Of a DNA stretch of 64,000 nt, positions 6,000-61,565 are shown one piece after another; the stretch's first letter is position 1, and each line of letters opens with the position of its first letter. Made by a program: the position numbers and the translations under genes. This DNA comes from Lytechinus pictus (taxonomy: Eukaryota). The notes below the pieces were generated by a model, which saw nothing but the letters and a program-made list of their open reading frames with translations, had not been told where the DNA came from and ran no database searches. Location: NCBI RefSeq assembly GCF_037042905.1, contig NC_087250.1, forward strand, positions 27,964,001 through 28,028,000, in the 5' to 3' direction.

Positions 6000-6045
6000 T
6001 ATTCTCGCTCCTTAGTCAAAGGCACCTCAAGTGGTTGGGGCATGT

Positions 6046-9000
6046 ATCACTATTCCAGAGTCAGTTAATGTCAGTACAAATACTACCCACCGAAACATTG
6101 CTTATATTCATGGTTTATACTACCAAGAATTACGTGGTAATGGCCTTAAGATCGCCCATTTAAATGTTAACAGCCTACTAAGACACATTGAAGAAGTGAG
6201 AACATTTGTTAAGACTAACAAGGTTCAGGTATTCGCAATTAATGAAACCAAAATAGATGAATCTATCTATGATAAAGAAATTATGATTGACGATTACAAT
6301 TTGGTTCGTAAAGACAGAGTTCGACAGGAAGGTGGAGTAGCCATTTATCTCCACAAATCATTACATTTTGAAAAAAATATTCATGAATTCCTTGATGATT
6401 TAGAAGCACTTGTTATTAAGATTTATCTCAAGTTTTCAAAACCTCTCATCGTATCAACTTGGTATAGACCACCATCCTCAGATATTGGAATCTTTAATTT
6501 GTATGAAAGATTTCTAAGCGTTATTGACACAATGAATTGTGATATAGTTATAGCAGGTGACGTAAACTGTGATATCCTAGCTAAACCCTTATCAAGCATG
6601 ACCAAGAAATATATTGATATAAATAATGTTTATTCTCTGGTCCAAGTTAATACCAAAGAAGCAACAAGAATCACTAATCTTTCTGCTACATTGATTGATC
6701 ACCTATTAACAAACAACACCAAAAACGTAGTGAATCATGGTGTAATTCATAACGGAATGAGTGACCATTCGATTAGCTTCCTGACCTGGAACTCTAAGAT
6801 TTGTGCTCAGCCAAAATTTATCACTTTCAGAAGTTGCAGCAAGCTCAATATTGATGACTTTAGAAATGATATTCGTAAACAGAATTGGGAAAGTATAGAT
6901 CAATGTAATTCAGTTGATGATGCTGTCGATTTATGGCAAAATATGTTTTTACAAGTTGTTGACAAACACATGCCAAATCGTTCAAAAAGAATAAGTACAA
7001 AGGGTTCTCCTTGGATGAATGCAAATATTTGTAAACTCATGAAAAAACGTGACAAACTTAAAAGAAAAGCTTGCAAACTGAAAGATGATAAACTTATGTG
7101 CGAGTACAGAATATTACGAAATAAGGTAACAAATGAAGTAAGGAAATCAAAGAAACGGTATTACTCTGATAAATTTACAAATCTTAAGGTAAACCCAAAA
7201 CAGACTTGGAAAACCTTAAAGTCCATTATTCCGAATAAAAAACGTGAAAATCTCACAGCTTCGTCTAATTCGGATTGTAATACTGAAACTGCTAACCTAT
7301 TCAACACTTACTTTGCAAATGTAGGGAGACAATTAGCCAGTGAAATACCCGATATGAACCTCCATACAGAAGATGGTAATTATACATATGATACTTTTGC
7401 ATTCACTCAGGTGAACGAACATGATGTTTTGAAAATCATAAGAAATCTTAAAAACACTAAGTCAGTCGGTATTGATAAGATATCTGTCTTTGTCTTGAAG
7501 GCATGCTCTATGGAGATATCAATGAGTATTGCTAAGTTGATTAATTTATCTTTGTCAAGCGGTATATTTCCGCAACAATGGAAACAAGCTAAGATTATCC
7601 CAATTCACAAAGGTGGCGATAAAAATTCTCCTTCGAATTATAGGCCCATCTCAATTTTGCCCTGCGTATCTAAAATACTGGAAAGGGTTGTCCAACGGCA
7701 AGTTTTAGATTTTTTTGCGAAATAATGATATTCTGACACCTGCCCAATCCGGTTTTCGGCCAAGGCACTCAACCATTACCACTCTCCTAAAGGTAACCAA
7801 TGACTGGTTCCACTCAATCGATCTTAAACATTACATTGGGGCCGTCTTCGTCGATTTAAAAAAAGCATTCGACACCGTGAACTGTGATATTCTTTTGAAA
7901 AAAATGAATAACTTAGGTATTTCTGGCACACCATCCTTATGGTTTCGAAGTTACATGTCAAACCGGGTTTGTAGGACTCTTATCAATTCGGAACTCTCTT
8001 ATGAATCAGTTATTAACTGCAGTGTGCCCCAGGGATCCCTCCTGGGGCCACTCTGCTCTTTATTTTATATGTCAATGATCTAGTGAAATGTATTAATACA
8101 TGTCATATCCAATTGTATGCGGATGACACCGTTTTCTATTTTTCACACCCCTCCATAGATAGAATCAACGAGGCCCTAAACTCAGATTTAGAAAATATGT
8201 ACCAATGGATGTGCCAGAATAAGTTAAGTGTTAACTGTCAAAAAACGGTCTGTATGCTCATCGGAAGCAAGAGTATGACTTCTAAACAAAATGTCCTTCA
8301 TGTTTCCTTAAATAATACCCCATTAGAACAAGTTCATCATGTCAAATACCTAGGCATCATAGTTGATGATTATTTGAATTTTAACTTGCATATAGACAAC
8401 ATGTTGCAAAAAATAGGTCAATTAGTCGGCTTTCTGGGAAGATTGCGGCGATCCTTAAGTGAATCGATCCTGAAATTAATATATAGTTCATTGATCCTCC
8501 CCTACTTTGATTATGGTGACGTTGTTTACGATGCATCCTTTAGGAAATACACAGACCGCCTTCAAAAACTGCAAAACAGAGCAGGTCGTATTATACTCCA
8601 AATTAAACCCGAATCTCATATATCTATTTTGGAAATGCATGATACACTAAATTGGCAATTGTTGGACAAAAGAAGAAACGATCATTCCCTTATTCTCATG
8701 TATAAGATCATGAATAATCTATCTCCAAAATATTTAAGAAATGAATTTGAGTTAGTATCACATACGTATCCCTCCCGTTTCGGAACCAAATTTAAATTAC
8801 CAAAACCAAGAACAAATTACCTCCAAAGATCCTTCAAGTATAAAAGCGCCATGGCTTATAATTCCCTTCCTCTTCACATCAAATCATCCCCTAGTATTCA
8901 TATTTTCAAATCTAAGATTGTTGATCTGTAGCACATGGACTCCGGTACCCCCCCCCCCATTCCCTGTTAGGTTTGCGCCCCTTATTATTTTTTTTTTTAT

Positions 9001-9229
9001 GTTTTATCTAAATATGTTTACTGTTGATATTTACATTTTCATTTATCTTCTGTACATCTGCTATTCAAATGTGGTTTATTTGTGTCTAAATTATACGTTA
9101 ATGTTAAATGTTATGGACCCCACGGAAGACCAGCGCTACTGTGCCAGTCACGCTGAATGTGGGCTATACACCGTATTTTATTGTATATAATTGTGCTTTT
9201 AATACGGAAATAAATACTACTACTACTAC
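6046..9229 (+). mobile_element. CR1/L2-group (Crack-like) LINE, 5'-truncated, near-complete ORF2 (APE endonuclease + RT), 2 frameshifts, (TAC)n tail
   Basis: ORFs 6031-7725, 7715-8083 and 8083-8931. EN motifs: HLNVNSL, NETKID, GDVNCD, SDH. RT motifs: NYRPISILP, QSGFRP, DLKKAFD, PQGSLLGP, YADD. AATAAA plus (TAC)5 at 9209-9229. Confidence 0.92.
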
Positions 9230-9450
9230 ATGATAGTCGCCATTCTATGGAGAGCTACTAAGTACAGGGGTCAAGACGTCAGAAAATAATCGGAATGCTA
9301 AATTGGCAGACCAAAGACCTAGGAGGAAGGCTAGGGCAGCATCTCTATATAAACCTGTCTCAGCGCCATCTTCCTTCATCTGTACAAATTTGCTATAGCT
9401 ACTGCCACTCTAGAGCGGAGCTCTACAGTCACTCTCGAAATTGTAAGACC
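9230..9450 (+). mobile_element. 3' end of the decayed RTE element, resumed after the CR1/L2 insertion
   Basis: Continues EDVA|DSRH... to a degenerate C2H2-like end (FICT..CHSRA.LYSHSRNCK). Confidence 0.6.
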
Positions 9451-10945: not shown

Positions 10946-11269
10946 GGAATTAGTTGTTGTTTGAGCTTCTCTTTTAAATTACATTATCTTTCCCTTCCAT
11001 TTACCACATTTTTGAATTGTCTCTCTATTTTCTAATTCATCGGAGTTTTATTTACCCTTGATTACCTATTATTAAACTTTTACCCGTTTTTTTTTTTAGT
11101 ATACTGTTATCAGCTTCTTCATTGTTTTGTCATCTTATGCCTCTTAATTCTTGTTTAACTGCTTGTAATTTATTTAGTTATTTCACTTGTTATTTGTTAT
11201 TTCACTGATTTAGTTCAATATAAATGCAACATGTTTTTCTTTTTAATGTCCGCTACTGATGGTCTGAAA

Positions 11270-14200
11270 GGGATCAGGACAACTACCCCCCCCGGACAAT
11301 TACCCCCCGGACAACTACCCCCGGACAATTACCCCCTGAGGACAATTACCCCCCGAGGACAATTACCCCCGGGACAATCACCCCCCGGACAACTACCCCC
11401 CGGACAATCACCCCCCAGACAACTACCCCCGGACAATTACCCCCCAGATAACTACCCCCGGACAATTACCCCCCAGAAAACTACCCCCGGACAATTACCC
11501 CCAGACAATTACCCCCCCCCGGACATCTACCCCCGGACAATCACCCCCAGACAACTACCCCCGGACAATTACCCCCCGGACAATTACCCCCAGACAATTA
11601 CCACCCAGACAACTACCCCCCGGAAAATTACCCCCCGGAAAATTACCCCCCCCCCCCCCGGACAACTACCCCCAGGACAATAACCCCCTGGATAACTACC
11701 CCCCGGACAATTTTGGATATTGTGATTTGAAACTGGATAATGATTTAAATATAGACCAAGTTGAGTATTTGAATAAACATGCGCGCGAATGTTTCATATT
11801 TAGACTTAGAATCTTGGCATTCTAAATACATATTTTATCATGAAAATCAAAGCGCAAAGCGATTTTAAACTGTTTGATATTCCGATCTGCAAAAGCAGTC
11901 AATTTTAGCTCTAAATTTCAAGCACTTTGTAGGAAAGTTGTGAGGTGGATATGGATTGCACTTCATAAAGAACTGACATTTTTCATTATTTACTTTCAGT
12001 TTTGACGTAGGACCAGGACATCTTTAGGACATTTCATCATATGAAAATGATGACTATCTTCCTATTCCTCTTGCTAAGCGCGAAATGAATCAAAAGGAAC
12101 AATCTAATCATTAAATTGATATGTTATTCATTAATGCCCAGTGAGTGCGCGAAATCTGATGATATCATGGCCTGAAACTGGACATTTCAAGCACTTTTGT
12201 AATTCTAAATAGAATGCAACAGTTAATTAATGTATTAATGCGAGCGCAAATTGCGAGACAATTTTTTTTTATAAACTGTCATGAAAAGGGGATTTTCAGT
12301 AGTTTGTTGTATAATCAATATTGAGACATACATAACTCGCCAATCAAAATGCGAGCGTGCAGCGCTAGCTGATACGTTTTGACAATCAGACCTGAAAGGG
12401 ATATTTTGAAAACTTTATGGAATACACAAAAATAATAGGTATCTAATAAATCAACATTTGCAAGCGCGCAGCGCAAGGATAAAATGTTTAAATTCAGACC
12501 ATAAAACCGACGTTTCTACAGAGCACTTTTTAAAAATCAATCACACAAATAATGAAAGTTCGATTTCCGAGATGAAGTATGTTTTGTATATTGACTTCCA
12601 AACTTGATATTTAAACTCCATATTGAACAGGCAATGCGACCACGAAGTGCGCGCGAAAATTTTATATAGTGACATGAAAGATTCTTTTTATTTTCCAAGT
12701 CTTTCCCTCATTTTATTTTATTCACTCGTCCTCCTCCTCTTCTTTTTCTCCTCTCATTCCCCTCCTTTTTTTCTTTCTTTCCTTTGTTTTCCCTCCACCA
12801 ATAGGAGCCTGTGCCCCTCGGGCCCCCCTGGATCCGCCTATATGATATGTAGCCTTAAAATATAAAGTTTTGAAGTCGACATACAAGCAGATTTCAGCTT
12901 AGACATTATTATTTTGTTTGATTTATAAATTGATTTTTAAAGTGCTCTTTTTAATGTCCGTTTTATGGTGTGAATATAACTAGCAGCTTGCGCTATGCAC
13001 TCGCATTATTTGATTTGCCAAATTATATAATAAACTACTTAAAACCCTCCTTCTATGACAGTTTACCAAAAATTTCGTCTCACGATTTGCGCTCGCAATT
13101 TTGTTTAAAATATATCAACTCACAAATCCTATTCATGATTACAAGAGTGCTTAAAATATCCAGTTTCCAGGCCCTAGTGTCAACACCTTTCACTCACTCA
13201 TTAGGCTTATCACATTACTAAAAATAAAATTTTCATGAATTCTTAATGACTAAATTGTCCCTTTTCACAGTTTCATATCGCGCTTAGGAAAAGGAATGAA
13301 AAAATTGTCATCATTTTCATATGATGACAAAATGTCCTTCGACCTAGAATGTCCAGGTCCTTGGTCAAAATAATAATGAAGATATCAGCTCGCGCTTCAC
13401 ACTCGCATCATTTATAAAGTGCTTTCCACATCCACTTCACAACTTCCCTACACAATGCTTTAGATAGTGCTCAAATTCACCATTTTCATACCGGAATATC
13501 AAGTATTTTCCGCTCGCGCTTCGCGCTCGCATTATTGATTTTCATGATAAAAATATCAAAATGCCCAGATTCTGTCTAACTCTAAAACACGCGCACAACA
13601 TTGAGATTTGCAGCTTCATATTTATTCAAAACGTGCTAAAATTTTCTAGTTTCAGATCAGATCGCGCTTTGTGCTCGCATAATTAATGCAGGAAGAAACC
13701 AAATTACCCATCCTTTTTCATGATTTACAAAATATGATTAGTGTCCCCTTTTTAGGTCTGAAATCCCTTTTTTTTTCCGCTCGCATTAATTGTTTGGTTT
13801 TATACCTATACCTCTAATTATTACAAAAAGTGCTAAGAATGTCATTTTTTTAGGTCAGAATATCAAAAAAAAAATTCAGCTCGCGCTTCGCGCTCGCATT
13901 ATTTAATAGTTGAAATATGTATCGTTTTAATGACAACTGCAAACTTCCTTAACAGGTCCCTTTTTGATCAAGCCAGAAACCATGTTAACAATTTCTGCTC
14001 ACGCTTCGCGCTCGCAGTAATTATCTAGTTACATACGCATCTTGTTCAGGTTCACAAACATTGCCCAGAATAGTCAATTTTCAGGTTAAAATATATACAT
14101 GCAATTCCAAAAAAAAATCAGCTCGTGCTTCGCGCTCGTACTATTTAAATAGGGCTTATAAGATCATTACACTGATTATGTTGTTTTATAAGAATAAAGC

Positions 14201-15068: not shown

Positions 15069-18000
15069 CAATAGATAGTTTTTTACATTGACACATAACA
15101 AAAGATGACCAAAACGTTTGACTTCCATTATTCAAAGCATCTTGGTTGATAGTTCGTGTATGTACGGTTTGAAGGTTTGACGGAATGGTTATTAACATGA
15201 AAAGCGGAGATAATATTATATTCTTCGTCGATAAGAGCTGCTATAGAAAATTGAGTATCTGAATATAAAAACGGTCAAGTCCAATTGAGTTAGATACGGG
15301 AAATTATTCCTTATACAATGACTCTTCTTGTGTATAAATGATAAATCTGAAATCATCTTTAAAAAATACCTTAAATAAAGGGGGAAAACCTTGCCCAAGC
15401 CAGGACTTCAGCTTTTCTTAACTTCATATCATAGCGCCCTCTCTCATTACATTTAACTCTGTACATACACTAACTGCATTATATTACTTTTTTTATTATT
15501 TGACAGAGATGTGGTTCAATCGTTGTGACGGAATAAAAGCATTCATCTGAATCTCTAACTTTATTCAGTCCTAAGTTATTATTATGAGTTTTTATTTTAC
15601 AAGAGGAGAGAGGTATTTTCAATACTGATCATAATGTAAAATAAAATCTTGTTTTATTTTTTACCTGGTCTACAATGATTAAAAAAATAATAATTAATTG
15701 AAGATCACTTGCAGATGTCTGTGATTCTGTGTTATTTGGGTATAATAATACCCTGTGTGTGTGTGTGTTCAGAGGGTGTGTGAGGGGTGGTTGGGTGGGT
15801 GTGAGTAAACAAAATAGCAAAAATAATAATTCCCAAGCTAATGTGCGTGTGTGGAAGTAGGGCATGCAGGGACGGATTAAGTATTGATGTTTTCTTACAA
15901 AAGTGTGCTGACACCACTAACCATTTTTTTAAGAATCACACCTCCCCCTCCAATTCACTAGCAAGCACTAAGATAGAAATTCTGCCAATTTACAAATGCA
16001 TTAAAAAACATATCTGGCAAGCATGAAATTAAGGTCCTTGCCATGGAAAAGTTCTCACTACATTTACACCCCCAACCTGAAAATAAGTCAGGACGCCCTC
16101 TGTATTTTCGTTTTTTTCTATTTAATTGAAAAATGAAGGGAAGGGCCATACCCCCTACCCCCTAATTCTTGAACTGCTGTTCGTGTGCTTAAGACTTCTT
16201 GGTGTCATGGATGGAGGAAGAGGGACCTGTACCACATGAATGATACGTCATCTTGCAAACTCTCTATCAATATATTTTTTATTATTATTTACAACACATT
16301 CATATGTCCTCACATTAACACTCACACCCACATAACCACACCAGCTCGCTCATCCAAAAACACATACGAAGAAATAAGAGGCACTATTTGTCTGATATAT
16401 AAGACAAATCTTTTGTGTATCATTTTTATACATCCAGTAGTACAAAAGTCTACCATGTATGCAGACGTAGGAATGACCCAAGTCCATGTGGTTCTAAAAG
16501 ACAGTTCACTTTAAGATTCTAGGACATCTACCCCCTGGACATCCACCTCCCGGACATCCACCCCCGGACATCCACCCCCTTAGGACAAGTACCCCCTAGG
16601 ACAAGTACCCTCTAGGACATCTACCCCCCGGACATCTACCCCCCGTACATCTACCCCCCGGACATCTACCCCCCGGACATCCACCCCCCGGACATCTACC
16701 CCCCGGACATCTACCCCCGGACATCTACCCCCCGGACATCTACCCCCTAGACATCTACCCCCCGGACATCTACCACCCGGACATCCACCCCCCGGACATC
16801 TACCACCCGGACATCTACCACCCGGACATCTACCACCCGGACATCCACCCCCCGGACATCCACTCTACGGACATCTACCCCCAGACTTCTAACCCCCGGA
16901 CATCTAATCCCCGGAAGTACATCAACCCCTCGACATACTCTGTTCATGAGGGTAATAATGGAGCTTAAAATGTTTAATTTTTAATATTGAATTATTCTGT
17001 TCACGATCCGAGTTTGCATTGATTTTTGTTAGTTTTAAACATTCTGATCATGAATCAATGTAGGAATTAGAGTATCGAATATCAGTTTTAGCTCGCGCAC
17101 TCATCACTTGTCTATTCTGATTAGGAAAGATTAATTAATTGTGCCGGACTCACTATCTGGTGAGCCTGCAATATTATAGTTTATCTGTGAAGTTATGAAC
17201 AAAATGAGAAATAATATTTTCATGATGAGATATTTGTTTAATAATATATAATATTCCTATAACTAATTGCAGGGAAATGTTTTCGACAATATCCCACATG
17301 CGTCACTCCTCACATACTCCACTAGCCCACACTCTTTGTGTCGTCATCTTTACTTAATTAACGGGTAATCTTATTTGTTATTCTCTTTTTCACAACAAAA
17401 AATACCAATAAAAAACATACCTGTGCCTCATTTTTTTATGAAAGGAATTCTCATTCAAATCATAACACGTCACATAATTGTACAAGATATAAACTCAAAA
17501 TACGAAAGGTCGAGTTCACAAAGGGAAACCCTTAGTCCATGATGCATGTACAACGTGACTCACTCAATTTAATGAATAATGGTTTGTTGAAATCTGAGTT
17601 CACAAAAGAAGTTGTATTGTTCTAATCAATTTCCATTTCATTTATATTCACCCTGTAAGAGACTGTTGAACAAACAACATTATACAAGAGGTTATTATTG
17701 AACTCCGCAATAACATACATAGGTATATCAACAGATGGAACCATCCTTGCTAGGCTGAACACAACTTTTTTCGAACTCTGACAACACCTCGGCAAATGTT
17801 ATTTTTTTAAGAAGGAACATATTTTCATTTATTACTTTATAAAAATCATGCATTTTATTTGTCTCTGGGCAAACAATGTAAACTTACGCACATAAAAATG
17901 AAAGCAAATACGAAGAAAATATTAAAAAACGATAGGTAGAAGGATAGAGGAGAGAAAGAGAGAGGAGACTTAAGAAAATACGAGAATACGTGGAGAAGAT

Positions 18001-23362: not shown

Positions 23363-24343
23363 TTGATAACAACGATGACGAACATAAACCAAATATCTAC
23401 GGCCTTCGATGGGAAGTTTGGTGAAACTATGATCCCCTTTAATAGTGACGCGTGACGCGTCACTTCGGGCGTCACATTCTGGCTTCATTTGGGGAACCAC
23501 GTAGTTTCAATCATCTCCTCTAATGGTCGTACATATTTGTTCGATGTATCCCTATTCTTAATTGCATTCGCATTAAAGGGGAACTTCAAGCTGAAAATAT
23601 TAGAACAATGAAAATATGATTTGTAAGCGATCGGGGGGTAGATGTCCGGGGGGTAGATATCCGGGGGGTAGAAGTCCGGGGGGTGGATGTCCGGGGGGTG
23701 GATGTCCGGGGGGTGGATGTCCGGGGGTGGATGTCCGGGGGGTGGATGTCCGGGGGGTGGATGTCCGGGGGGTGGATGTCCGGGGGGTGGATGTCCGGGG
23801 GGTGGATGTCCGGGGGGTGGATGTCCGGGGGGTGGATGTCCGGGGGTGGATGTCCGGGGGGTAGATGTCCGGGGGGTAGATGTCCTAGAGGGTACTTGTC
23901 CTAGGGGGTACTTGTCCTAAGGGGGTGGATGTCCGGGGGGTGGATGTCCGGGGGGTAGATGTCCAGGGGGTAGATTACGCACTTTAAAATTTGTATGTAA
24001 AGAGACAGGGTGTTGGATTGTTGGTTAATGTTCAAATTTAGCTACGTGGACGGGTGTAGTTCAAATAAATGTTGGATTCCTAACACAACTTGTGATGTGT
24101 CTTCAGTTAATTAAAAAACTAATTTTATTTGCTCATTTTTATTCATATTTTGTAGTCTATTTATCCATAATATAGAAACTTTTTACTGAATTCTCTGTTG
24201 GGAAATAGTGTTAAATTCCCAAACTGGGCCAAAAAATTAAAACATATCGTAACATTTTTTACAGACATGATTTGATGTAATCTTCAGCTTTTGACTAGTT
24301 TTTAATTACGACTATTTGGAGCGGCTTTCCAATTCTGCATTAA

Positions 24344-47802: not shown

Positions 47803-48772
47803 ATTTCAGCACCCCCCCAGTTCTAGCATCAATTTGGCGCCCCCCTCGTTCGAACATCAATTTGGCGCCCCAAGTTCGAATAGCAATTTGGCGCCCCCTA
47901 GTTCGAACATTCTATCAGCCCCCCCCCCCCCATGTCGAACATAAATTTGGAACCCTACGTCGAACATCAATTCGGCGCACCCCCCTACGTCGAACATCTA
48001 TTTGGCCTCCCTAGGTCAAACATCAATTTGGTGCCCCCAGTTGGAACATCAAATTGGCGCCCCTAGTTCGAATATCAATTCGGCGCCCTAGGCCTACATG
48101 TAGTTCGAATATCATTTCGCCCCCTAGTTTTAGTATCAATTTGGCGCCCCCTAGTTCGAACATCAATTCGGCGCCCCCTAGTTTGTGTATCAATTTGGCG
48201 CCCCCTAGATCGAACATCGATTCGGCCCTCCCCCCAAGTTCGAGTATCAATTTGTCGCCCCCATTTCGAACATCATTTTAACATCCCTTCGAACATCATT
48301 TCGGCGCCCTCCTAGTTCGAATATCAATTCGCCCCCCACCCCCTAGCTCGAGTATCAAATTAGCGCCCCCTAGTTCCAACACCAATTTGGCGCCCCCGAG
48401 TTCAACATCAATTTAGCGCCCTTACGTCGAACACCAATTCTGAGCCCCCTAGTTCGAGTAGCAATTTGGCGCCCCCCTAGTTCGAACATCGATTGCCCCC
48501 CCCCCCTAGTTCGAGTATCAATCTGGCGCCCCCAGTCCGAACATCATTTTAACATCCCTTCAAACATCATTTCCGCACTATCATAGTTCGAATATCACTT
48601 CGGCGCCCCTACATGTAGGTTCAATATCAAGTAAGCGCCCCTAGTTCGAATATCATGTCGCCCCCCTAGCTCGAGTATCAATTTGGCGCCCCCTAGTTCC
48701 AACATCAATTTGGCACCCCCTAGTTCAGCATCAATTTGGCGCCCCTACGTCGAACATCAATTATGACCCACC
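47803..48772. repeat. ~30-bp satellite (CTAGTTCGAACATCAATTTGGCGCCCC)n, left block
   Basis: About 30 degenerate tandem copies. The array resumes at 51494. Confidence 0.92.
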
Positions 48773-51493
48773 TGTTACACCCACAAATGTAATAATCGCC
48801 CACAAATGTAATAACGCCCACAAATGTAATAACACTTTACCCACAAATGTAATAACGCCCACAAATGTAATAACACTTTACCCACAAATGTAATAATTTT
48901 GATCGCCCACAAATGTAATAATGACTTTACCCACAAATGTAATAAATTTGAAGGGATTTTTGGCGAATCCGTTCTAAACTGAAATCCTATAGTAATACGT
49001 TCATATAGCACAAAAGTGCAAAGTCCTTTTTTCCAGACCCGGTTAATAAAGAAAGTATAATATAATCCAAAGTCTTTTCTTCCAGACCCGGTTGTTTCAA
49101 TAATTATAATATAAGTTCAAAGTCTTTTTTCCAGACCAAGTTGTTAAAAAAATTATAATATAAGTCCAAAGTCTTTTTTTCCAGACCCGGTTGTTTCAAA
49201 AATTATAATATAAGTTCAAAGTTTTTTTTCCAGACCTGGTTGTTAAAAAAATTATAATATAAGTCCAAAGTCTTTTTTCCAGACCCGGTTGTTTCAAAAA
49301 TTATAATATAAGTCCAAAGTCTTTTTCCAGACCCGGTTGTTTCAAAAATTATAATATAAGTTCAAAGTCTTTTTTCCAGACCCGGTTGTTTCAAAAACTA
49401 TACTGTAAGTTCAAAGTTTAAAGTTTCGCTTAATTTGTATTTTTTCAGAGAACTCGTTGTGGGGTACAGACAACACTCTAAACCCAAGCATTTTAACTGG
49501 GCTTAATTTTGAAATTTGGTCTTATTTTTTTTTTCTTTCAATATTTCTTTATTTTTTAAATAACCGGGTTTAGACGAAAGACTAAGCATAATACTCGTGT
49601 TATTCCACAGGAATAAGAATATGACAAAGTCTTGTGTTTTTAAGACTGTTTGAATTAATTTTTAAATGACTGGGTCTGGAATAAAGACAACGCTCTAAAC
49701 ATGTGCTTTTCTACATGGTCTTAATTTGGAGGATTGTTGGTTCTTAGATTCGTTGTTGGGGTTGGGTTTTATTGCTTTTTTATTCTTGAAATAACTGTGT
49801 CTGGAGGAAAATCTACAATCGATCTTCATGTTATTCCACAGTAATTAGATTATTGGGTATTCGTTTGAGAATATTTGTAAAAACTATCTTTTTTTTCAAA
49901 TAATAACCAAGTCTGGAGAAAGGATGTTTGCTTTACCCATGCGTTATTACAATGTTTTGTAGGGGTCTTAGTATTATTTAAAAAAAAATGGCCTGGGTGC
50001 GGAGTAAATACATATTTTTACACCCAGTAAGGGTGTAACTTTTGAAGATTGGTCTTAGATTTGAACTGTTGAAGTTTTTTTAATTCATTTTTTTTAAATA
50101 ACCGGGTCTGGAGAAAAGAGTACGTTTTAAAACTCGTGTTATTCCAGAAAAATTAGAATATAATATAGTCTTACGTTAGAAGATTTTTTTGGGGGTAATT
50201 TTTTTTAATGATTAGGTCTGGAATAAAGACAATGCTCTAAACCTCTTTTTAAAACAGGTTCTTAGGTTGAAGGATTGTTTGGTCTTAGATTTGGAACTTT
50301 CTTATTATTACTGTTAGCGTTATTTTGAAAAAAAAAATAACTGGGTCTGGCTGAAAGACTATGCTATATGTCCATGTTAACTGGGCGTTGTGGCGTGCGC
50401 CTGTAATCCAAGCTATGCGGGGAAGTTACAAATTGATGCAGAGGTTCGAGCCCTGGTCACGTCTTTCGGATGGTGACGTTTAAGGTCGGTCCCAGACGTA
50501 AATAATCATATCTGATTGATACACGTCTGACAAAACTCAAATACACACACACACACACACGTTATCCAGCATTAATAAGATTATGGGGTCTTTAGACTGT
50601 TTGTGTTGTTGTTGTATTGTTATTTATAATTTTCGAATAACAGGGTTTGGAGAAAAGACTAAGCTCGATTTTTATTTTTATTCCACTGGAATATCATTAT
50701 GGTATCTCAGTTTGGACTTATATTATAATTTTTGAAATAACTGGGTCTGGAAAAAAGACTTTGGACTTATGTTGTAATGTTTGAAACAACCGGTCTGGAA
50801 AAAGACTTTGGACTTATATTATAATTTTTGAAACAACCGGGTCTTGAAAAAAGACTTAATTTAGACTTATGTCACAAATATTTAATCAACCAGGTCTGGA
50901 AAAAAGACTTTGCACTTTTGTGCTATATGAACACATTACTAAAAGGATTTAGTTTTTAGTTTTAAGTAACCGGGTGTGAAGAAAGACTACGCTTGATTCT
51001 CAATTTACTCTTAGCGCATATATTCACAATACGCACCATGTAAGTTCAAACAAGAACAAAGACATTAATTCCATCAGTTTTAATTAACTGGGTCTGGAGA
51101 AAAGACGAAGCTCGATTCTCATTTTCATTCCACTGGAATATCATTATCGTATCCTAGTTTGGATTTATTTTATATTTTCAATAACCGTGTCTGGAAAAAA
51201 AAGACTTTGGACTTATATTATAATTTTTGAAATAACCGGGTCTGGAAAAAAGAACTTAAATTATATTATAATTTTTGAATTAATCGGGTCTGGAAAAAAG
51301 ACTTTGCACTTTTGTGCTATATGAACGCATTACTATAGGATTTTAGTTTAGAACGGATTCGCCAAAAATCCCTTCAAATTTATTACATTTGTGGGTAAAG
51401 TCATTATTACATTTGTGGGCGATCAAAAATTATTACATTTGTGGGTAGAGTGTTATTACATTTGTGGGCGTTATTACATTTGTGGGTGCAACA
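48773..51493. mobile_element. 2.7-kb non-coding foldback element with TGT...ACA termini (Ginger-like ends)
   Basis: TGTTACACCCACAAATGTAATAA / TTATTACATTTGTGGGTGCAACA. TIRs built of (cccacaaatgtaataa)n plus a ~90-bp unique block, then ~60-bp ttccagacccgg repeats in opposite orientations. Flanks ccacc / ccccc. Confidence 0.85.
50380..50560 (+). mobile_element. SINE with a 7SL (SRP RNA Alu-domain)-like head, B-box, two hairpins and (CA)n tail
   Basis: ACTGGGCGTTGTGGCGTGCGCCTGTAATCCAAGCTA head, GGTTCGAGCCC at 50443-50453, (AC)n tail, TSD GTTA (catgtta / cacgtta). It interrupts a host 60-bp repeat unit. Confidence 0.75.
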
Positions 51494-51845
51494 CCCCCCC
51501 CCTAGTTCGAGTATCAATTTGGCGCCCCCCTTTGTTCGAACATCGATTGCCCCCTAGTTCGAGTATCAATCTGGTGCTCCCAGTCCGAACATCAGTTTAA
51601 CATCCCTTCGAACATCATTTTGGCACTCTCATAGTTCGAATATCAATTTGGCGCCCCTAGTTCGAATATCATTTCGGCCCACCTCCCCCCCCCCCCTCCC
51701 TAGCTCGAGTATCAATTTGGTGCCCCCTAGTTCCAACATCAATTTGGCGCCCCCTAGTTCAACATCAATTTGGCGCCCTTACGTCGAACATCAATTCGCC
51801 CCCCCCCCGTTCGAACATAATTTCGACATTCCTTCGAACATCATT
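51494..51845. repeat. ~30-bp satellite, right block
   Basis: Same unit as 47803-48772. Confidence 0.92.
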
Positions 51846-54831: not shown

Positions 54832-55090
54832 GTAGACAGTCGTGTGGACATACATGTGGTATTCGGTATGATATGTTAAACCGATTTTACATGTACTTCA
54901 ATTACATGGGTGACTTGAACAGCCAAATGTAAACAATCAGGTATGTCTTTCCTTTGACATTCCCTATCTATTTTCAAATATTCTTGGGCAGAAATGGAGA
55001 CGCCTGTGAGTTTCTAACTGAGTTTTTTTGTAAAGTGTACAAAAGTTATCAGGGCCTGATTAAGCATGCCAAGATATACGTTATGCGTAC

Positions 55091-57591
55091 CTTGATATAA
55101 ATCTTCAGTAGGTTAAATCTCTCCTGGAAGCTTGGTCGCATGTTTTTCCTCCCGACTTTCCTAGCATTCTGATGTCCCTTCCAGATACCAAGGGCGGTGT
55201 GAAAGAAGAAGATCAAATTAATTGCCAGAAGTATTGCCATTGGGATACCGAATGCCATGAACCTCATGAAATCATCACCAATCCAACAAAGACCACCATA
55301 TGAATAATCCAGTACTTCCGAATGGGTGATAGCGTCAATGCAGAGACAAGGGATGACCACACAAAATGACACACCCGGGATGTACACTAGGTACCTAATG
55401 AGTGACTTTAGACTCGTCTGCGCAAAGTTGAAGCTCCTGTTGTAACCAAACGTGTGGTGTAAATCGAAGGCAAGGGAATTGGTAGTGGCGAATACAGCTA
55501 ACCAGCAAAAATGGGTAGTTGCAGAGACAATCTTACAGAGGATAGGAAAGGGGTACGCATATGAACCAACAACTGTCAAAATTTGAGCAAGGAACAGGAA
55601 CACACAAAGGAACATCATGAGTTTGTTATTGGTCAATTTCCGAAGAGATGGAAACATGATGTGTGTGGAGAGGGTCACTACCAAGGAAATGAGGGAGACA
55701 GTCACGCAAACAGTACTTAGAATGCTCTGAGAGTCAGAGTACTGGAGAAACTCCACGGAAGAGTTGATATTTATAACACCGCTGTTCTCTGATGAAAATG
55801 AACACACTTGAATGCTTCCAGTTTTACTTATCCCAAATTCAGATTCATTGAATTGCATGCCAGACACCAAATGGACCAGGATTGTTTGATTCTCAATATG
55901 AAGCTGACGGAATTCCGAAGCATTCATTGTGATAATTGGACAAGAAAGAGTCACTGATACTGGATCGGTAGCATTTTCAATGCGGTCAACACAAAACTGG
56001 ACTACTTCTCTTATAGAAACCGTCGCATTGACATGCGAACGTTGCAACTGCGCCGTTCTTCTCACTTCAACAGATTTATATTTCTGTGCTGCATGATGTC
56101 CTCTGAATATCAGATGAGTTTTTTTATTCAAGGTGACCTCGGAGACATCTTGGCCGTATTTCACATCCATCCATCCAAATTGACAAGGTATATCTTCATC
56201 ACTGCAATACAGCTGGAACTGCAATACCGACGCTCCACATAAATGACCTCTTGAGGAAGTATTAATTATTTTAACCAAGGTGGAATATGACATATCGACT
56301 TGCACCTCAACCGTCAGCTTTGGATTCACATCCTGTGCGATACACTGATCCACATCAGGGTAAACACGGACTAAAGAAACGTCATCCAAGGATATCCCAA
56401 GGAATTCTGTGAGGCACTTCATCAAACCTTGATTTTCTTGAAATAATGCACATTCTCTGATTGAATTGTTCAAGCCACCAAATTCAATTCCAACACGATT
56501 TCCATTACACCCGACAGCCCAGGTACACTCACCGTCAAGAAGAGACAAGCTGTTCCTGCACGAAAGAGAACGACATATCCCCGACAGGATGTCAAAGACA
56601 GCTCCTTCTTCGCATTCCACTGTTTTCTGCTGGACAAAATTCTCATCAACTTTGAAATGAATACCGTCATTACCTTTAAAATCTACCAAGAGTGAGATTG
56701 GGAACCCTATAGGTGTCGTCCCCTCCCCGCGGATATAATGGAAACAAGAAGTGAACTCTGAATAGTGACGATCTGGAAGATTACACTTGAGACAGTATTC
56801 ATTGAAAAAATATGGCATTTTCCGGGAAAGTGTCAACGGTGCCCGCAACCCTAAACCCACACAAGCATCAGCAATCGCATCATCTGCAAAATTTTCTGGA
56901 CAACTTCTGACTTCGTTGAAGCATTCTCGATATGCAGGGGTACGCCTGAACGTAGATTTATCATCGAATGTATAAGTGCACACCCCTCTCCTGATTCTAT
57001 CCAGCATTTCATCAGTATCTGAAGGTGGAACAGAGCCATCACTGCAGTTGAAAAGAACAGGCCAAGATGTGAGGTTGGCAGATTGAAAACCATGGCAGAT
57101 GGCACAATAGACATTTCTGAAAGTCACCCTGCGCTCAAGAGACACTGGCACAATTGTCAGTAGGTCATCAGTGAAAGAAGCAGTGTCTTCACACCTTGGC
57201 TTGGTATCTGAACTATTCCACTTTGATGGGCAACGGGTGACAAACCAATAACTCGCAGTTTTTGCCTTAACGCATGAAACCATGTTGGGGCGAACCGAAT
57301 CAGGCACTTCCATGGTTTCCATGTTTTGATGATCAACATAGCCAGACATTCCGAAACCAAATCCAAATCCAAAGCCGAACCCTCCAGTGTCCTTGTTTTG
57401 GCACAGTGATTGGTAGTCCCAGCAACAATCTTCAAAATGCTCGCATGCGTTGTCGCAGCTGCAGGTGGAGAACCCGGCGACATAATTACAACCAAGATTC
57501 GAACATGAATGGTATTCGCTACAGATTCCGATCGTCATGTTTGTATTGTTGGCTTGAATGTATTCCATAGCACCTGATAACCACCTTTCAA
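55091..57591 (-). CDS. Large exon of a family-B/adhesion-like (Methuselah-like) GPCR: somatomedin-B-like domain, Cys-rich ectodomain, TM1-TM5
   Basis: 855-aa ORF with CSCDNACEHFEDCCWDYQSLC, TFRNVYCAICHG and five hydrophobic helices (CKIVSATTHFCWL, YGGLCWI, FGIPMAILLAINLIFF). Acceptor tttcag|TT at 57591, donor AAG|gtacgc at 55091. Confidence 0.93.
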
Positions 57592-58067
57592 CTGAAAAAA
57601 AAAAACAACATGACAAATCTGATTAAATATTGAGTTGCAGGTCAACATAGCATAATTTCCTAAAGAACATATATATCTTTGCCGGGTTCAACTGGTAATG
57701 TCTAACAATCCATTCATTACTCTTTTCAATGTGGACATAAAATTCATTTCAATAAAATCCGGTAGATATTCTAGTCATGAAAAAAATAAACAGAATATAA
57801 AGTTTAAATTGGAATATGTGCTGTGGTTCTGGTTGTACACTTCACCTTATAATAACAAACGCATTTGCTACATAGAAACCTAAAAGGGATTTTTCTTAAA
57901 GTTAAAACAAAGTGCAAGTGGCAGATACGTTAGAGTTTAAAGAAAAAATGTGAGAAATAATAAGAGCATTATGAAAATTTAAATATGAAAAAAAAAAACA
58001 TTGTGTTTAGATTAACCGTTTTCCATATTTCATATTGATCATGCTGGTAGTGTCATTGCAATACAAA

Positions 58068-61000
58068 CGCTAAGAAATAAAGGTTCAAAATTGAACCCCT
58101 AGAGGTTAATGCAATAGCAGCACCCCAAGGCTTCAACAATTTAACCCCTAGTTGGGGTTCAAAAATCGAATCCCTAATTGGGGTTTAAAATCTAAACATG
58201 TTTTCCCACCATCTGGGCTCAAAAACTGCGCCACGCGTGGTGCAATCATAAAGTACTCAGGGTTCATTTCAACATCCCTACGGTTCAAATTTGAACCCTT
58301 AAAGGTTTATTTTTGCAACTTTCAGGGTGCATTTTCCACCATATTAAACCAAAGAGTTCTTTTTGCGACAGCCACCGTAAATAACAAGACTGTCGATACT
58401 TCTTCACTTGCTGTTTCTCTATCGATTTTTGGGTGTTTCTTACCTTAGTTAGGGGTCGAACCCGTTTCGATGTATCTGCAGATAAGATTATTCCTGCTTT
58501 GTCAGCCAGTAGTGCTGATACCAGAAGAGGTTTCATAGCGATTTTGAGCCAATACTTTAAATAGTCTAGGCTTTCCCACCCTTACTGATTAATAAAACCG
58601 ATGTCTATGGACAATTTACGCAAAATTTGACAGAATAAAACTATATTTTGGTATGTATTTTCACTCTCCCATCATCTATGTTCCACATTAGAGCGAGATA
58701 TATTATTTTGAACCTTCTCCATATTTTTATTTTCAATTTTGAGTGACTGTCGCAAAGAGACCCTTCCCCTTTCATTGTAAATTTGTAAAAAAAAAAATAT
58801 ATATATAGAAGTGCCGATTTGATGCCTTGCCTTCCTTGGCGTAATCGGTTGACCCACGCCTTCTAGCCGCGTTGACATTAGTCTGTGTACGGTTACCTTC
58901 TTTACAAAGACTTCTAACTTGCATGTTTCGTTTAAATGGATTTACACAGCACATTAATTAGTATTGATCATTTGATAATTTGGCTTTATTTTCTTTCTAT
59001 AACCTTTGAATCAATTCACTTTCATAAAAGTTATGTCTGTAACATGTGAATATAATTATGATAATCACCTTTCTGTAGTTTTCTGTACAAGACTAATGAA
59101 GGTTCGTGATTTAACCTTACAAATTGAACCCCAGTCTATACAAGGTGAACCAGTATAGATATAATATTCAACCCTCGGGGCAAAATTGGACCTTAAACTG
59201 CACAGCCATGGAGTGTCTTTGGCCACGCACCAGGAAACACACGGACTGGTTTGATGAAAACTGTACTGAGATCAAGCACCTGCTAGAGAAAAAGCGTCGG
59301 GTCTATAAGTCTCATCTTAATGACCCAACGTAATTAGCTAATAAAGATACACTTAGGAGTGTGCTGAGCATCTTCAGGCAAAGTTGCGCCAAATGCAGGA
59401 TTCCTGGTTGAGTAAGAGAGCGGATGAGATTGAGGGCTTTGCAGACAGGAATGACATGAAAAACTTGTATGATGGCCTGAAGGAAGTCTATGGTCCCTCT
59501 ACCACAGGCTCATTGTCCCCCCTTCTCAGTGCTGATGGTTCTACTATAATCACAAACAAAGAGAAAATTATAGAAAGATGGGCAGAGCACTTCAACGGTG
59601 TACTGAACATGCCTTCAGTCGTAAAAAATGAGGCCATTGACAGGCTGCCTCAGGTCCCGGTCGATGAGACAATGGATGCCATACCAACCTTGGAGGACAC
59701 TCGGAAAGCAATTCACTCATTACCTCATTACCTAGTGGCAAAGCTCCTGGTTTGGACTCCGTTCCAGCTGAAATCTACAAAGAAGGTGTTATGGTCCTGT
59801 CTAAGAAACTCCACCAGTTGTTTCAACAAATTTGGCAACATGAGACAGTGCCTCAGAACTTCAAAGATGCCTCCATCATACATCTATACAAACGCAAAGG
59901 AAATAGCCAAGCTTGTGACAATCATCGTGGAATATCCCTGTTGTCCATCGCAGGCAAGATCCTTGCTAGAGTCCTACTCAATCGCCTCATTGTACATCTT
60001 GAACAAGGCCTCCTTCCTGAAAGCCAGTGTGGCTTCCGAAAAGCACGTGGCACTGTTGACATGGTGTTTGCTCCTAGACAGTTACAAGAGAAGTGTCAAG
60101 AACAGAATGCTGACCTCTACTCCACCTACGTCGATCTTACCAAGGCTTTCGACACTGTTAGCAGAGAGGGTCTTTGGAAAGTCATGGCAAAGTATGGTTG
60201 CCCCAGAAAGTTCATCGCCATCGTACGACAGCTCCATGATCGCATGCTGGCAAGAGTTCAGGACAACGGTGAGACTTCTGACTCATTTCATGTCTCAAAC
60301 GGAGTGAAACAAGGCTGTGTCCTTGCTCCCACCTTGTTCAGTCTCATGTTCCCAGTCATGCTGACTGATGCCTTCAGCAATACAAACATGGGCATTGGCA
60401 TCAGGTACAGGACTGATGGCTCTGTCTTCAACCTTAGGAGGCTTAAAGCAAAAACCAAAGTCTCAACTGACACTATCAATGACTTCCTGTTTGCTGATGA
60501 TTGTGCCCTCAATGCTTCCACAGAGGCTGACATGCAGCATAGTGTTGACAAGTTCTCTGAGGCCTGCAACAACTTCGGCCTTACAATCAGCACAAAGAAG
60601 ACTGAAATATTACATCAACCAGATCCAGGAAAGCCTTACGTTGAACCCAACATCACAATATGCGGACAACGTCTAAATGTGGTGGACAAGTTCACATACC
60701 TCGGCAGCACACTCTCAAGAAACGTTGTCATTGACGATGAAGTTAATGCCAGACTTGCTAAGGCAAGCGCTGCCTTTGGCAGACTATACAAGAACATTTG
60801 AAACAGGAAAGGAATCTCAACGACAACCAAGATCAAGGTGTACAGGGCCATGGTTTTTACCACATTGCTGTACGGCTGTGAAACATGGACAGTATATCGG
60901 CGCCATGCCAGGAAGTTGAACCATTTCCACACCACCTGTCTGAGAAAATTTTTTGGCATCAAGTGGCAAGACAGGATACCAGACACTGAGGTCCTCACTC

Positions 61001-61565
61001 GTGCGAACCTGCCCAGCATTTACACTGTTCTGATGCAGTCTCAGTTCCGGTGGGCAGGACATGTAGCTCACATGCTGGACGAACGTCTTCCAAAGAAACT
61101 TCTGTTTGGCGAGCTCCAGGAAGGAATACTCTCTCATGGAGGCCCAAATAAGCGCTTTAAACACACACTAAAAGAATCACTTAAGTCTTTTAACATCAAC
61201 CATGACACATGGGAACAGAAAGCCCAAGACAGAGGAGCATGGCGAGCAGCTGTACATAAGGGTGCTGAAGCATATGAGGCCAATAGGACCGTAGTGGCCG
61301 TAGCCCGCAGGCAGGCCAGGAAGGCAAGGACTGCCAACCCTGTAGCAGCCAATATTCCCTGTCCACACTGCCAGAGACTATTTAGGGCACAGATTTGCCT
61401 GACTGGCCATCTGCGGACCCATCAAGCTAATGATTAAACCCCAGGATGATTAGATGGTCCTCGTCGCATCGACGGACAAACAAGAAGAAGAATATTCAAC
61501 CCTCGTCGAGATAGGGGTAAAAAAGGGCAAAATTGGACCTTAAACTGCACCTTTAATTCTTAGTG
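58068..61565. mobile_element. Possible CACTA-like non-autonomous element hosting the RTE insertion
   Basis: C(G)CTAAGAAATAAAGGT at 58068 versus ACCTTTAATTCTTAGTG ending at 61565, with aattgaacccc subterminal motifs. No matching TSD. Confidence 0.4.
59204..61490 (+). mobile_element. RTE-clade (BovB-like) LINE, 5'-truncated, RT + C-terminal C2H2, (GAA)n tail
   Basis: NHRGISLLS, ESQCGFR, DLTKAFD, GVKQGCVLAP, FADD, LLYGCETW, CPHC..H..TH. Frameshift at ~59730 and a premature stop at 60799. TSD AATATTCAACCCTCG (59163-59177, 61491-61505). Confidence 0.95.

Follow-up and report, generated by a model that had tools for sequence, protein, structure and literature searches.

A young family of short interspersed elements in a sea urchin, with a 5′ end apparently copied from the host's own 7SL RNA

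A 181-nucleotide (nt) element found in the sea urchin genome of Lytechinus pictus raises the question of whether 7SL RNA, the RNA within the signal recognition particle (SRP), has given rise to a mobile element in an invertebrate. The element lies on contig NC_087250.1 within a stretch of 64,000 nt, which we call the window, and an earlier note made from the letters alone had proposed that it is an Alu-like short interspersed nuclear element (SINE). SINEs derived from 7SL include Alu, the human genome's most successful mobile element, and such origins are considered extremely rare. Their range is given as narrow, comprising supraprimates, hagfish and, since 2026, a shrew mole (PMC5786205, PMC7245038, PMC10886601, PMC13023118; statements on published work here and below are drawn from excerpts of the papers cited). 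The two groups named in the earlier note, Euarchontoglires and hagfish, both stand in that list, to which the shrew mole has to be added (PMC13023118). We found that the element is very probably a non-autonomous sea urchin SINE in which 47 nt at the 5′ end come from the host's 7SL RNA and are joined to an unrelated body (Table 1).

Consistent with a 7SL origin of the head, the Rfam model Metazoa_SRP (RF00017) matched window positions 50380–50426 with 29.6 bits (E = 4.1e-6; model positions 1–44), and helices 2, 3 and 4 as well as the UGUAAU stretch were all aligned. This was the best of six matches at E ≤ 10 when 50300–50640 was searched in E-value mode. At gathering thresholds the whole window gave 0 Rfam matches because a 47-nt fragment cannot attain the 70-bit cut-off. 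The host's own 7SL gene, trimmed to its first 50 nt, reached only 37.7 bits on RF00017, so the SINE head comes close to the highest value that can be expected of this segment. Other SINE copies scored 31.9–34.9 bits on the same model. Among 25 scored SRP matches in the host genome, seven were full-length 7SL genes (272–283 bits) and the remaining 18 were 58–96 nt long and scored 31.9–34.9 bits; the three of these whose loci were retrieved (L038–L040) proved to be SINE copies.

The earlier note had suggested alignment to the species' own 7SL gene. Over nt 1–31 the head was identical to one of the seven genes, L037, at 31/31 positions and to the other six at 30/31, and alignment of the first 47 nt to L037 gave 42 matches in 50 columns. 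Across the first 60 nt, comparison of two copies with two genes gave 48–49 matches in 63–68 columns, or 71–78% identity, most of it in nt 1–47. These values place the family among 7SL-derived SINEs as SINEBase formally defines them, with 60% identity or more to 7SL across 60 nt or more (PMC3531059). A helix-2 variant, ACT...AGT, is common to the element and, among the seven genes, to L037 only, and the L037 gene type is therefore the likeliest source of the head. The first base of the element was the A at 7SL +1 in 21 of 30 inspected copies.

By contrast with this match to 7SL, a tRNA head, as in SINE2 elements, was not seen. ARAGORN predicted 0 tRNA genes in the element and no tRNA family was among the six Rfam matches, leaving the B box as the only tRNA-type part. 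The second Rfam match was mir-1268, which covered the head bases (50378–50430, 29.2 bits, E = 0.0014). The same model also matched genuine 7SL genes with 34.3 and 36.1 bits, and we rejected a microRNA identity for the head as a side effect of its likeness to 7SL. Taken together, these comparisons indicate that nt 1–47 were copied from the host's own 7SL RNA. The 7SL assignment made in the earlier note is thus borne out, and a better fit of the head to a tRNA, which would have spoken against it, did not appear.

The element is one of many. A first look at the genome gave 1,640 candidate matches, and all 40 that were scored were 98–100% identical and lay on many contigs. We then counted head–body junctions at three mismatches or fewer, using reversed patterns as controls. 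In the subfamily of the window copy, which has a single B box, the junction 54-mer occurred in 326 copies, 74 of them exact (reversed control, 0), so the sequence is not the single-copy chimera that the earlier note had named as a possible refutation. A second subfamily, in which the helix-4 loop is 2 nt shorter, gave 295 junction copies (99 exact; reversed control, 0), and the largest, in which the B box is tandemly duplicated (GGTTCGA twice), gave 635 (at least 100 exact; reversed control, 0). With 326 + 295 + 635 junction matches, the interspersed copies number well over 100. A 28-mer of the head had 1,296 genome occurrences including the 7 genes, and a 26-mer of the core had 1,553 at two mismatches or fewer, each with a reversed control of 0. 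This is therefore a young SINE family of about 1,300 to 1,600 copies with at least three subfamilies, and it is possibly still active.

The copies also carry the marks of retroposition. Flanks were unrelated in 30 of 30 inspected copies save for some common host repeats, and long shared flanks of the kind left by segmental duplication were not seen among these 30. Length of the (CA)n tail differed between copies, giving elements of 174–192 nt. Target-site duplications of at least 3 bp were present in 20 of the 30 copies, compared with 39% of shuffled flank pairings, and duplications of at least 7 bp in 3 of 30, compared with 0.4%; the 10 of 30 copies without a duplication compare with 61% of shuffled pairings. 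Common 5′ ends, variable tails and short duplications in genome-wide copies support the earlier note's view of the element as a SINE. Older members exist as well: one copy (L052) is 81–82% identical to the rest, and a single weak 36-nt core match (L067), recovered by sensitive BLAST of 278,301 nt of genome sequence, looks like an ancient decayed copy.

Several further observations concern how the copies are distributed. Some paralogous host repeats bear insertions at matching positions: the window copy (L001) corresponds to L015 in this way, as do L004, L007 and L010 to one another, where the insertion points are a few bases apart. The flanks in these cases are 3–10% diverged and the SINEs differ at 0–1 of 164 positions, which indicates separate insertions and suggests insertion hot spots or a target preference. 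Head-to-tail SINE dimers with a spacing of 190 bp were found in at least five places (L039:1501–1875 and on contigs C2, C4, C7 and C18); L039 and L040 have common flanks, so that the dimer there is part of a larger unit that is itself repeated. Sequencing runs of two other organisms contained about half of the 31-letter words sampled from the element, which may reflect near-identical copies in related species and is a lead only.

To define where the 7SL sequence stops, we followed the alignment beyond the head. Past about nt 47 the covariance-model alignment consisted mostly of non-canonical pairs and added little score. Nor did the body align significantly with the remainder of 7SL: in local alignments, a fraction of 0.016–0.026 of the shuffles scored as high for one subfamily and 0.33–0.35 for the two others. 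Of the 7SL Alu domain the element thus keeps the 5′ domain alone, and we rejected an assignment of the sequence after nt 47 to the 7SL S domain, 3′ arm or B-box region. The term "Alu-like" used in the earlier note is apt for the retained 5′ domain and too strong for the whole, which lacks the 3′ arm. Both arms are kept in all described 7SL SINEs (PMC7245038, PMC13023118), including all described SINE1 families, and the architecture of the sea urchin family is therefore unlike any of them.

The body has other sources. The consensus B-box string is absent from the host's own 7SL gene sequences, so the B box of the SINE must have been acquired or have evolved separately. A candidate source was a B-box-like hairpin located downstream of the 7SL genes; this was rejected because only about 4 of 11 bases beyond the box agree by eye. 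The core that follows the B box resembles the Deu (or Nin) domain of other SINEs. Two paper supplements each contained a single occurrence of a 10-mer of the core, in a SINE of Tegillarca granosa, and in the printed alignment of BivaMD-SINE1 the matching block lies in the segment that its authors name the Deu domain (Nin domain). GTCACG, the TCTTTCGGATGG block, TTAAA and GGTCCC, which bivalve DeuSINEs (Nin-DC SINEs) share with the sea urchin core (Nishihara 2016, PMC4824008; Matetovici 2016, PMC4758252), occur in the same order in the core and a published bivalve Deu segment, with about 31 of 45 columns matching by eye. The Deu domain of DeuSINEs spans 70–330 bp, whereas about 40–45 nt are recognizable here as judged by eye; these correspond to its 5′ part, and the remainder is absent. 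The Deu/Nin core proposed in the earlier note therefore has partial support, from the near-exact TCTTTCGGATGG block and its flanking motifs and for that part of the domain only.

We next looked for a relative with the same body and a different head. Loci were chosen in which either the head or the core, not both, was perfect, and 0 of 20 had a different head, tRNA or other; all were mutated, truncated or old copies of the same SINE family. L057 seemed an exception and was rejected as a differently headed relative, being a 5′-truncated copy next to unique flanking sequence. The supplements of a bivalve SINE survey, which mined tRNA-derived SINEs only, contained no matching SINE sequence (PMC11481361). 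The idea of a fusion onto a tRNA/Deu-type body remains plausible, although no such body behind a tRNA head turned up in the searched loci or in the 278,301 nt.

Taken together, these features suggest how the element may work. RNA polymerase III (Pol III) would start at the 7SL +1 base, from a putative composite promoter made of the 7SL-derived A-box region and the tRNA-type B box downstream. Both motifs are present, the A-box region being identical to that of 7SL and the B box lying at 50443–50453. The window copy is without any run of four T residues, and transcription would therefore read through into the flank. The 3′ stem-loop, which is kept in every subfamily, and the (CA)n repeat would be recognized by the reverse transcriptase of a stringent non-L1 long interspersed nuclear element (LINE), whose enzyme would insert the copy by target-primed reverse transcription and leave short, variable target-site duplications. 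The 7SL head may bind SRP9/14 and so bring the RNA to ribosomes that are making the LINE protein, as proposed for Alu. The fusion itself probably arose in one of two ways: reverse transcription could have begun on an older SINE RNA and changed over to a 7SL RNA template, or a 5′-truncated SINE could have inserted in a 7SL gene copy at about nt 47.

As the head and the host's own 7SL gene do not differ over nt 1–31, the origin of the head is independent of the Alu/B1 and hagfish lineages, as the earlier note had supposed. A broader proposal is that this is an unpublished, independent echinoderm origin in which a module of about 47 nt serves as a portable SRP9/14 docking device, arrived at convergently in vertebrates and an invertebrate and here combined with a non-L1 LINE. 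We advance this combined claim tentatively, and on balance lean against its holding in full. An SRP14 exon was detected in the genome (30.6 bits).

Several observations weigh against these readings. The Deu/Nin likeness is a by-eye comparison of about 45 nt, and neither the 20 loci nor, by sensitive BLAST, the 278,301 nt of genome sequence gave a SINE that could have donated the body. Neither the two LINEs of the window nor that genome sequence yielded a LINE with the SINE's 3′ end. The 3′ arm of the 7SL Alu domain is absent from the element, and the helix-4 loop departs from 7SL by one inserted A, with further changes in younger subfamilies. Folded thermodynamically, neither the head nor the whole RNA did better than shuffles (z = +0.06 and −0.58), which lends no support to an SRP9/14-binding fold, although minimum free energy (MFE) folding is not informative for the Alu fold. 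SRP9 (PF05486) was not detected in a six-frame search of the genome, a search that is uninformative for a small, intron-split gene.

The lack of the 3′ arm, the drift of the helix-4 loop in younger subfamilies and the shuffle-level folds also favour an explanation that accepts the same element and origin and gives the 7SL head a smaller role, that of a Pol III promoter and a defined 5′ end, with no part for SRP9/14 in mobilization. From general knowledge of LINE–SINE pairs, a stringent LINE that reads the 3′ stem-loop would not need docking at the ribosome. However, the retained piece runs to about nt 47 and takes in all of helices 2–4, more than the A-box region at 6–15 (Kojima 2020), and coincides with a 46-nt domain reported to be associated with SRP9/14 and needed for Alu retrotransposition (PMC11760393). 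The pairing of helix 2, moreover, is preserved through the ACT/AGT variant. We give this promoter role a little less than an even chance. It is also conceivable that the family is real and already catalogued, in Repbase, Dfam or the repeat library of a genome paper, in which case only its novelty would fall. There are repeat libraries for sea urchins, and the family may have been given a label by an automatic classifier. Against this, the known range of SINE1 elements is stated to be confined to primates, rodents and hagfishes (Kojima 2024, PMC10886601), 7SL-derived SINEs are stated for supraprimates, hagfish and now a shrew mole (PMC13023118), and full-text literature searches yielded no 7SL-derived SINE from an invertebrate or a sea urchin. 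Prior cataloguing therefore seems unlikely, though far from negligible.

Two explanations that deny the 7SL family altogether fare much worse. In one, the head is derived from a tRNA or resembles 7SL by chance, and the element is an ordinary tRNA/Deu-type SINE. The B box does fit the tRNA-type consensus, the bases around it can form a T-arm-like stem (4 of 5 bp), and described Deu/Nin SINEs carry tRNA or 5S heads (PMC4824008). Yet neither ARAGORN nor Rfam at E ≤ 10 recovered a tRNA, and the element begins at the +1 base of a host 7SL gene that it matches at 31/31 positions. A tRNA origin of nt 1–47 is thus refuted and this explanation is extremely improbable, even if the B-box segment may still be a tRNA remnant. 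In the other, the copies are one-off chimeric 7SL retrocopies or segmental duplicates rather than a self-propagating family. Chimeric retrocopies of small RNAs are generally known and some copies do lie in shared host repeats; the junction, however, is uniform in 1,256 copies falling into three subfamilies with diagnostic indels, and paralogous flanks have diverged far more than the SINEs inside them, as expected of separate insertions. The copy counts refute this reading, and we consider it scarcely credible.

We compared the family with known systems. The closest is hagfish SINE1-1_EBu (Kojima 2020, PMC7245038). Like the sea urchin family, it takes its head from the host's own 7SL with an origin independent of Alu and B1, is a chimera with an older SINE- or LINE-derived body, ends in a microsatellite tail with presumably a stringent non-L1 LINE as partner, and is young, with a few thousand copies (2,363 in hagfish; PMC13023118). 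By contrast, it keeps the whole Alu domain with the S domain deleted, whereas the sea urchin family keeps nt 1–47 only. Body and tail also differ, being bipartite RTE sequences and (AAC)n in hagfish and a B box, a Deu/Nin-like core, a stem-loop and (CA)n in the sea urchin, as does the host, a vertebrate in one case and an echinoderm in the other.

Alu, B1 and Tu of Euarchontoglires and Urop of the shrew mole share with the sea urchin family the 7SL +1 start, the A-box region, helices 2–4 and SRP9/14 docking as a proposed helper function (PMC13023118). These elements consist of 7SL sequence only, with 5′ and 3′ arms brought together by a deletion of about 183 nt, whereas the sea urchin element is without the 3′ arm and has a B box other than that of 7SL. 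Alu, B1, Tu and Urop end in poly(A) tails, and L1 mobilizes them without a specific 3′ structure, in contrast to the stem-loop and (CA)n of the sea urchin family. DeuSINEs carry tRNA or 5S heads where the sea urchin element has a 7SL head, and those with a 5S and partial-tRNA head parallel the swap seen here, in which a non-tRNA Pol III head is combined with a retained tRNA-type B box (PMC4824008, PMC4758252).

A 46-nt 5′ Alu domain has been reported to be necessary for Alu retrotransposition and to associate with SRP9/14 (Moldovan, Yin and Moran, preprint, PMC11760393), and it represents the same segment (about nt 1–46) of a 7SL-type RNA as the sea urchin head. That domain was an engineered deletion of human Alu tested with L1 in HeLa cells; the sea urchin module is natural, carries a foreign body and is known from sequence alone. 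The family can therefore be viewed as a natural deletion experiment in which the 5′ domain alone, the piece reported necessary for Alu mobilization, was kept (PMC11760393). With its young, possibly active copies in a laboratory model animal, it opens to test the long-standing idea that SRP9/14 binding delivers SINE RNA to the ribosome, where the RNA captures the LINE enzyme.

On the literature read, the family is unreported: we found no 7SL-derived SINE in a sea urchin or any invertebrate in a full-text search, which covered published papers and left Repbase, Dfam and SINEBase outside it. Among 7SL SINEs, that of the sea urchin would be the first from an invertebrate and would add another independent origin. 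Its roughly 1,300 young insertions could also be used as population or phylogenetic markers in Lytechinus.

Table 1. Parts of the SINE copy in the window and its flanking duplications (window positions)
Feature	Position	Strand	Basis
SINE copy, full length, 181 nt, youngest subfamily (single B box)	50380..50560	+	self match 100%; 39 more genome matches at 98–99%
5′ target-site duplication GTTA	50376..50379	+	direct reading; identical four bases after the tail
7SL-derived head: Alu-domain helices 2, 3, 4 (5′ domain), including the 7SL A-box equivalent	50380..50426	+	RF00017 match; alignment to own 7SL
Linker between 7SL head and B box	50427..50442	+	similarity to rest of 7SL not significant; kept among subfamilies
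Pol III B-box-like motif GGTTCGAGCCC	50443..50453	+	direct reading
Core like the 5′ part of the Deu/Nin-DC SINE domain	50455..50493	+	by-eye comparison with BivaMD-SINE1 and Tgr_1 (supplement sequences)
5-bp hairpin inside the core	arms 50456–50460 / 50473–50477	+	direct reading
3′ stem-loop, 7-bp outer arms 50493–50499 / 50523–50529 plus inner stem	50493..50529	+	both MFE and centroid folds
Unique 3′ end (50530–50543), then (CA)n tail (50544–50560)	50530..50560	+	tail length copy-dependent
3′ target-site duplication GTTA	50561..50564	+	direct reading

Direct reading of the window upheld the other structural claims of the earlier note, namely a 181-bp insert with a GTTA duplication and a (CA)n tail that interrupts a host repeat, and a B box and two hairpins, found at 50443–50453, 50456–50477 and 50493–50529. 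The insertion site is a degenerate host array with units of about 49 bp. Around the SINE, which occupies the centre, repeats are arranged as a large inversion: arrays of 49-bp units at 49014–49417 and 50711–51311 have opposite orientations, and outside these lie arrays of 26–27-bp units at 48101–48762 and 51499–51823.

The earlier note had also suggested a search for a LINE with the same 3′ hairpin and (CA)n tail, which came back empty for the window and the 278,301 nt; nor did that genome sequence contain a match to the tail alone with non-SINE sequence upstream. The two LINE-like elements in the window, at 6016–8931 (+) and 59357–61437 (+), have long endonuclease/reverse-transcriptase frames. 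The first has its end in (TAC)n, near 9216–9230, and (AAG)n comes after the second, near 61483–61492; the 3′ end of the SINE is shared with neither.

The host 7SL loci have features of their own. Six of the seven genes are followed by a B-box or T-arm-like hairpin, GGTTCGAGTCC or GGTTCGAGTCT (L031:1799–1858 and the same position in L032–L036), located 15–45 nt past the T-run of the 7SL terminator, and several genes have a second T-run after it. The hairpin is absent within 60 nt of the L037 gene, and ARAGORN found no tRNA in the seven 7SL loci. The hairpin may be a downstream TFIIIC site for those genes. On contig C10, the sequence about 34 bp upstream of three clustered 7SL genes holds the end of an older SINE copy with about 87% identity to the window copy (L031:1290–1467 and 877–1049; L035:1294–1467; L036:1315–1473). 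The copy stops just short of a conserved block, about 40 bp long, found upstream in six of the seven 7SL genes. The closest relatives of this copy elsewhere are 90–91% identical to it, which indicates one old insertion duplicated together with the 7SL genes.

Elsewhere in the window, long frames of proline-rich short repeats (PPGQLPP- or DNYPP-like) at 11159–11825, 16600–16968 and 23485–23916 look like translated microsatellite-type DNA and not genes. At 55049–57622 (−), a single long frame encodes a secretin-family seven-transmembrane receptor with a DUF8401 domain. A protein atlas had suggested Mollusca as the host group, which proved wrong. The product is 100% identical to a Lytechinus pictus protein, 84% identical to a paralogue and 63% identical to a Strongylocentrotus purpuratus protein, in agreement with the invertebrate host that the earlier note had assumed.

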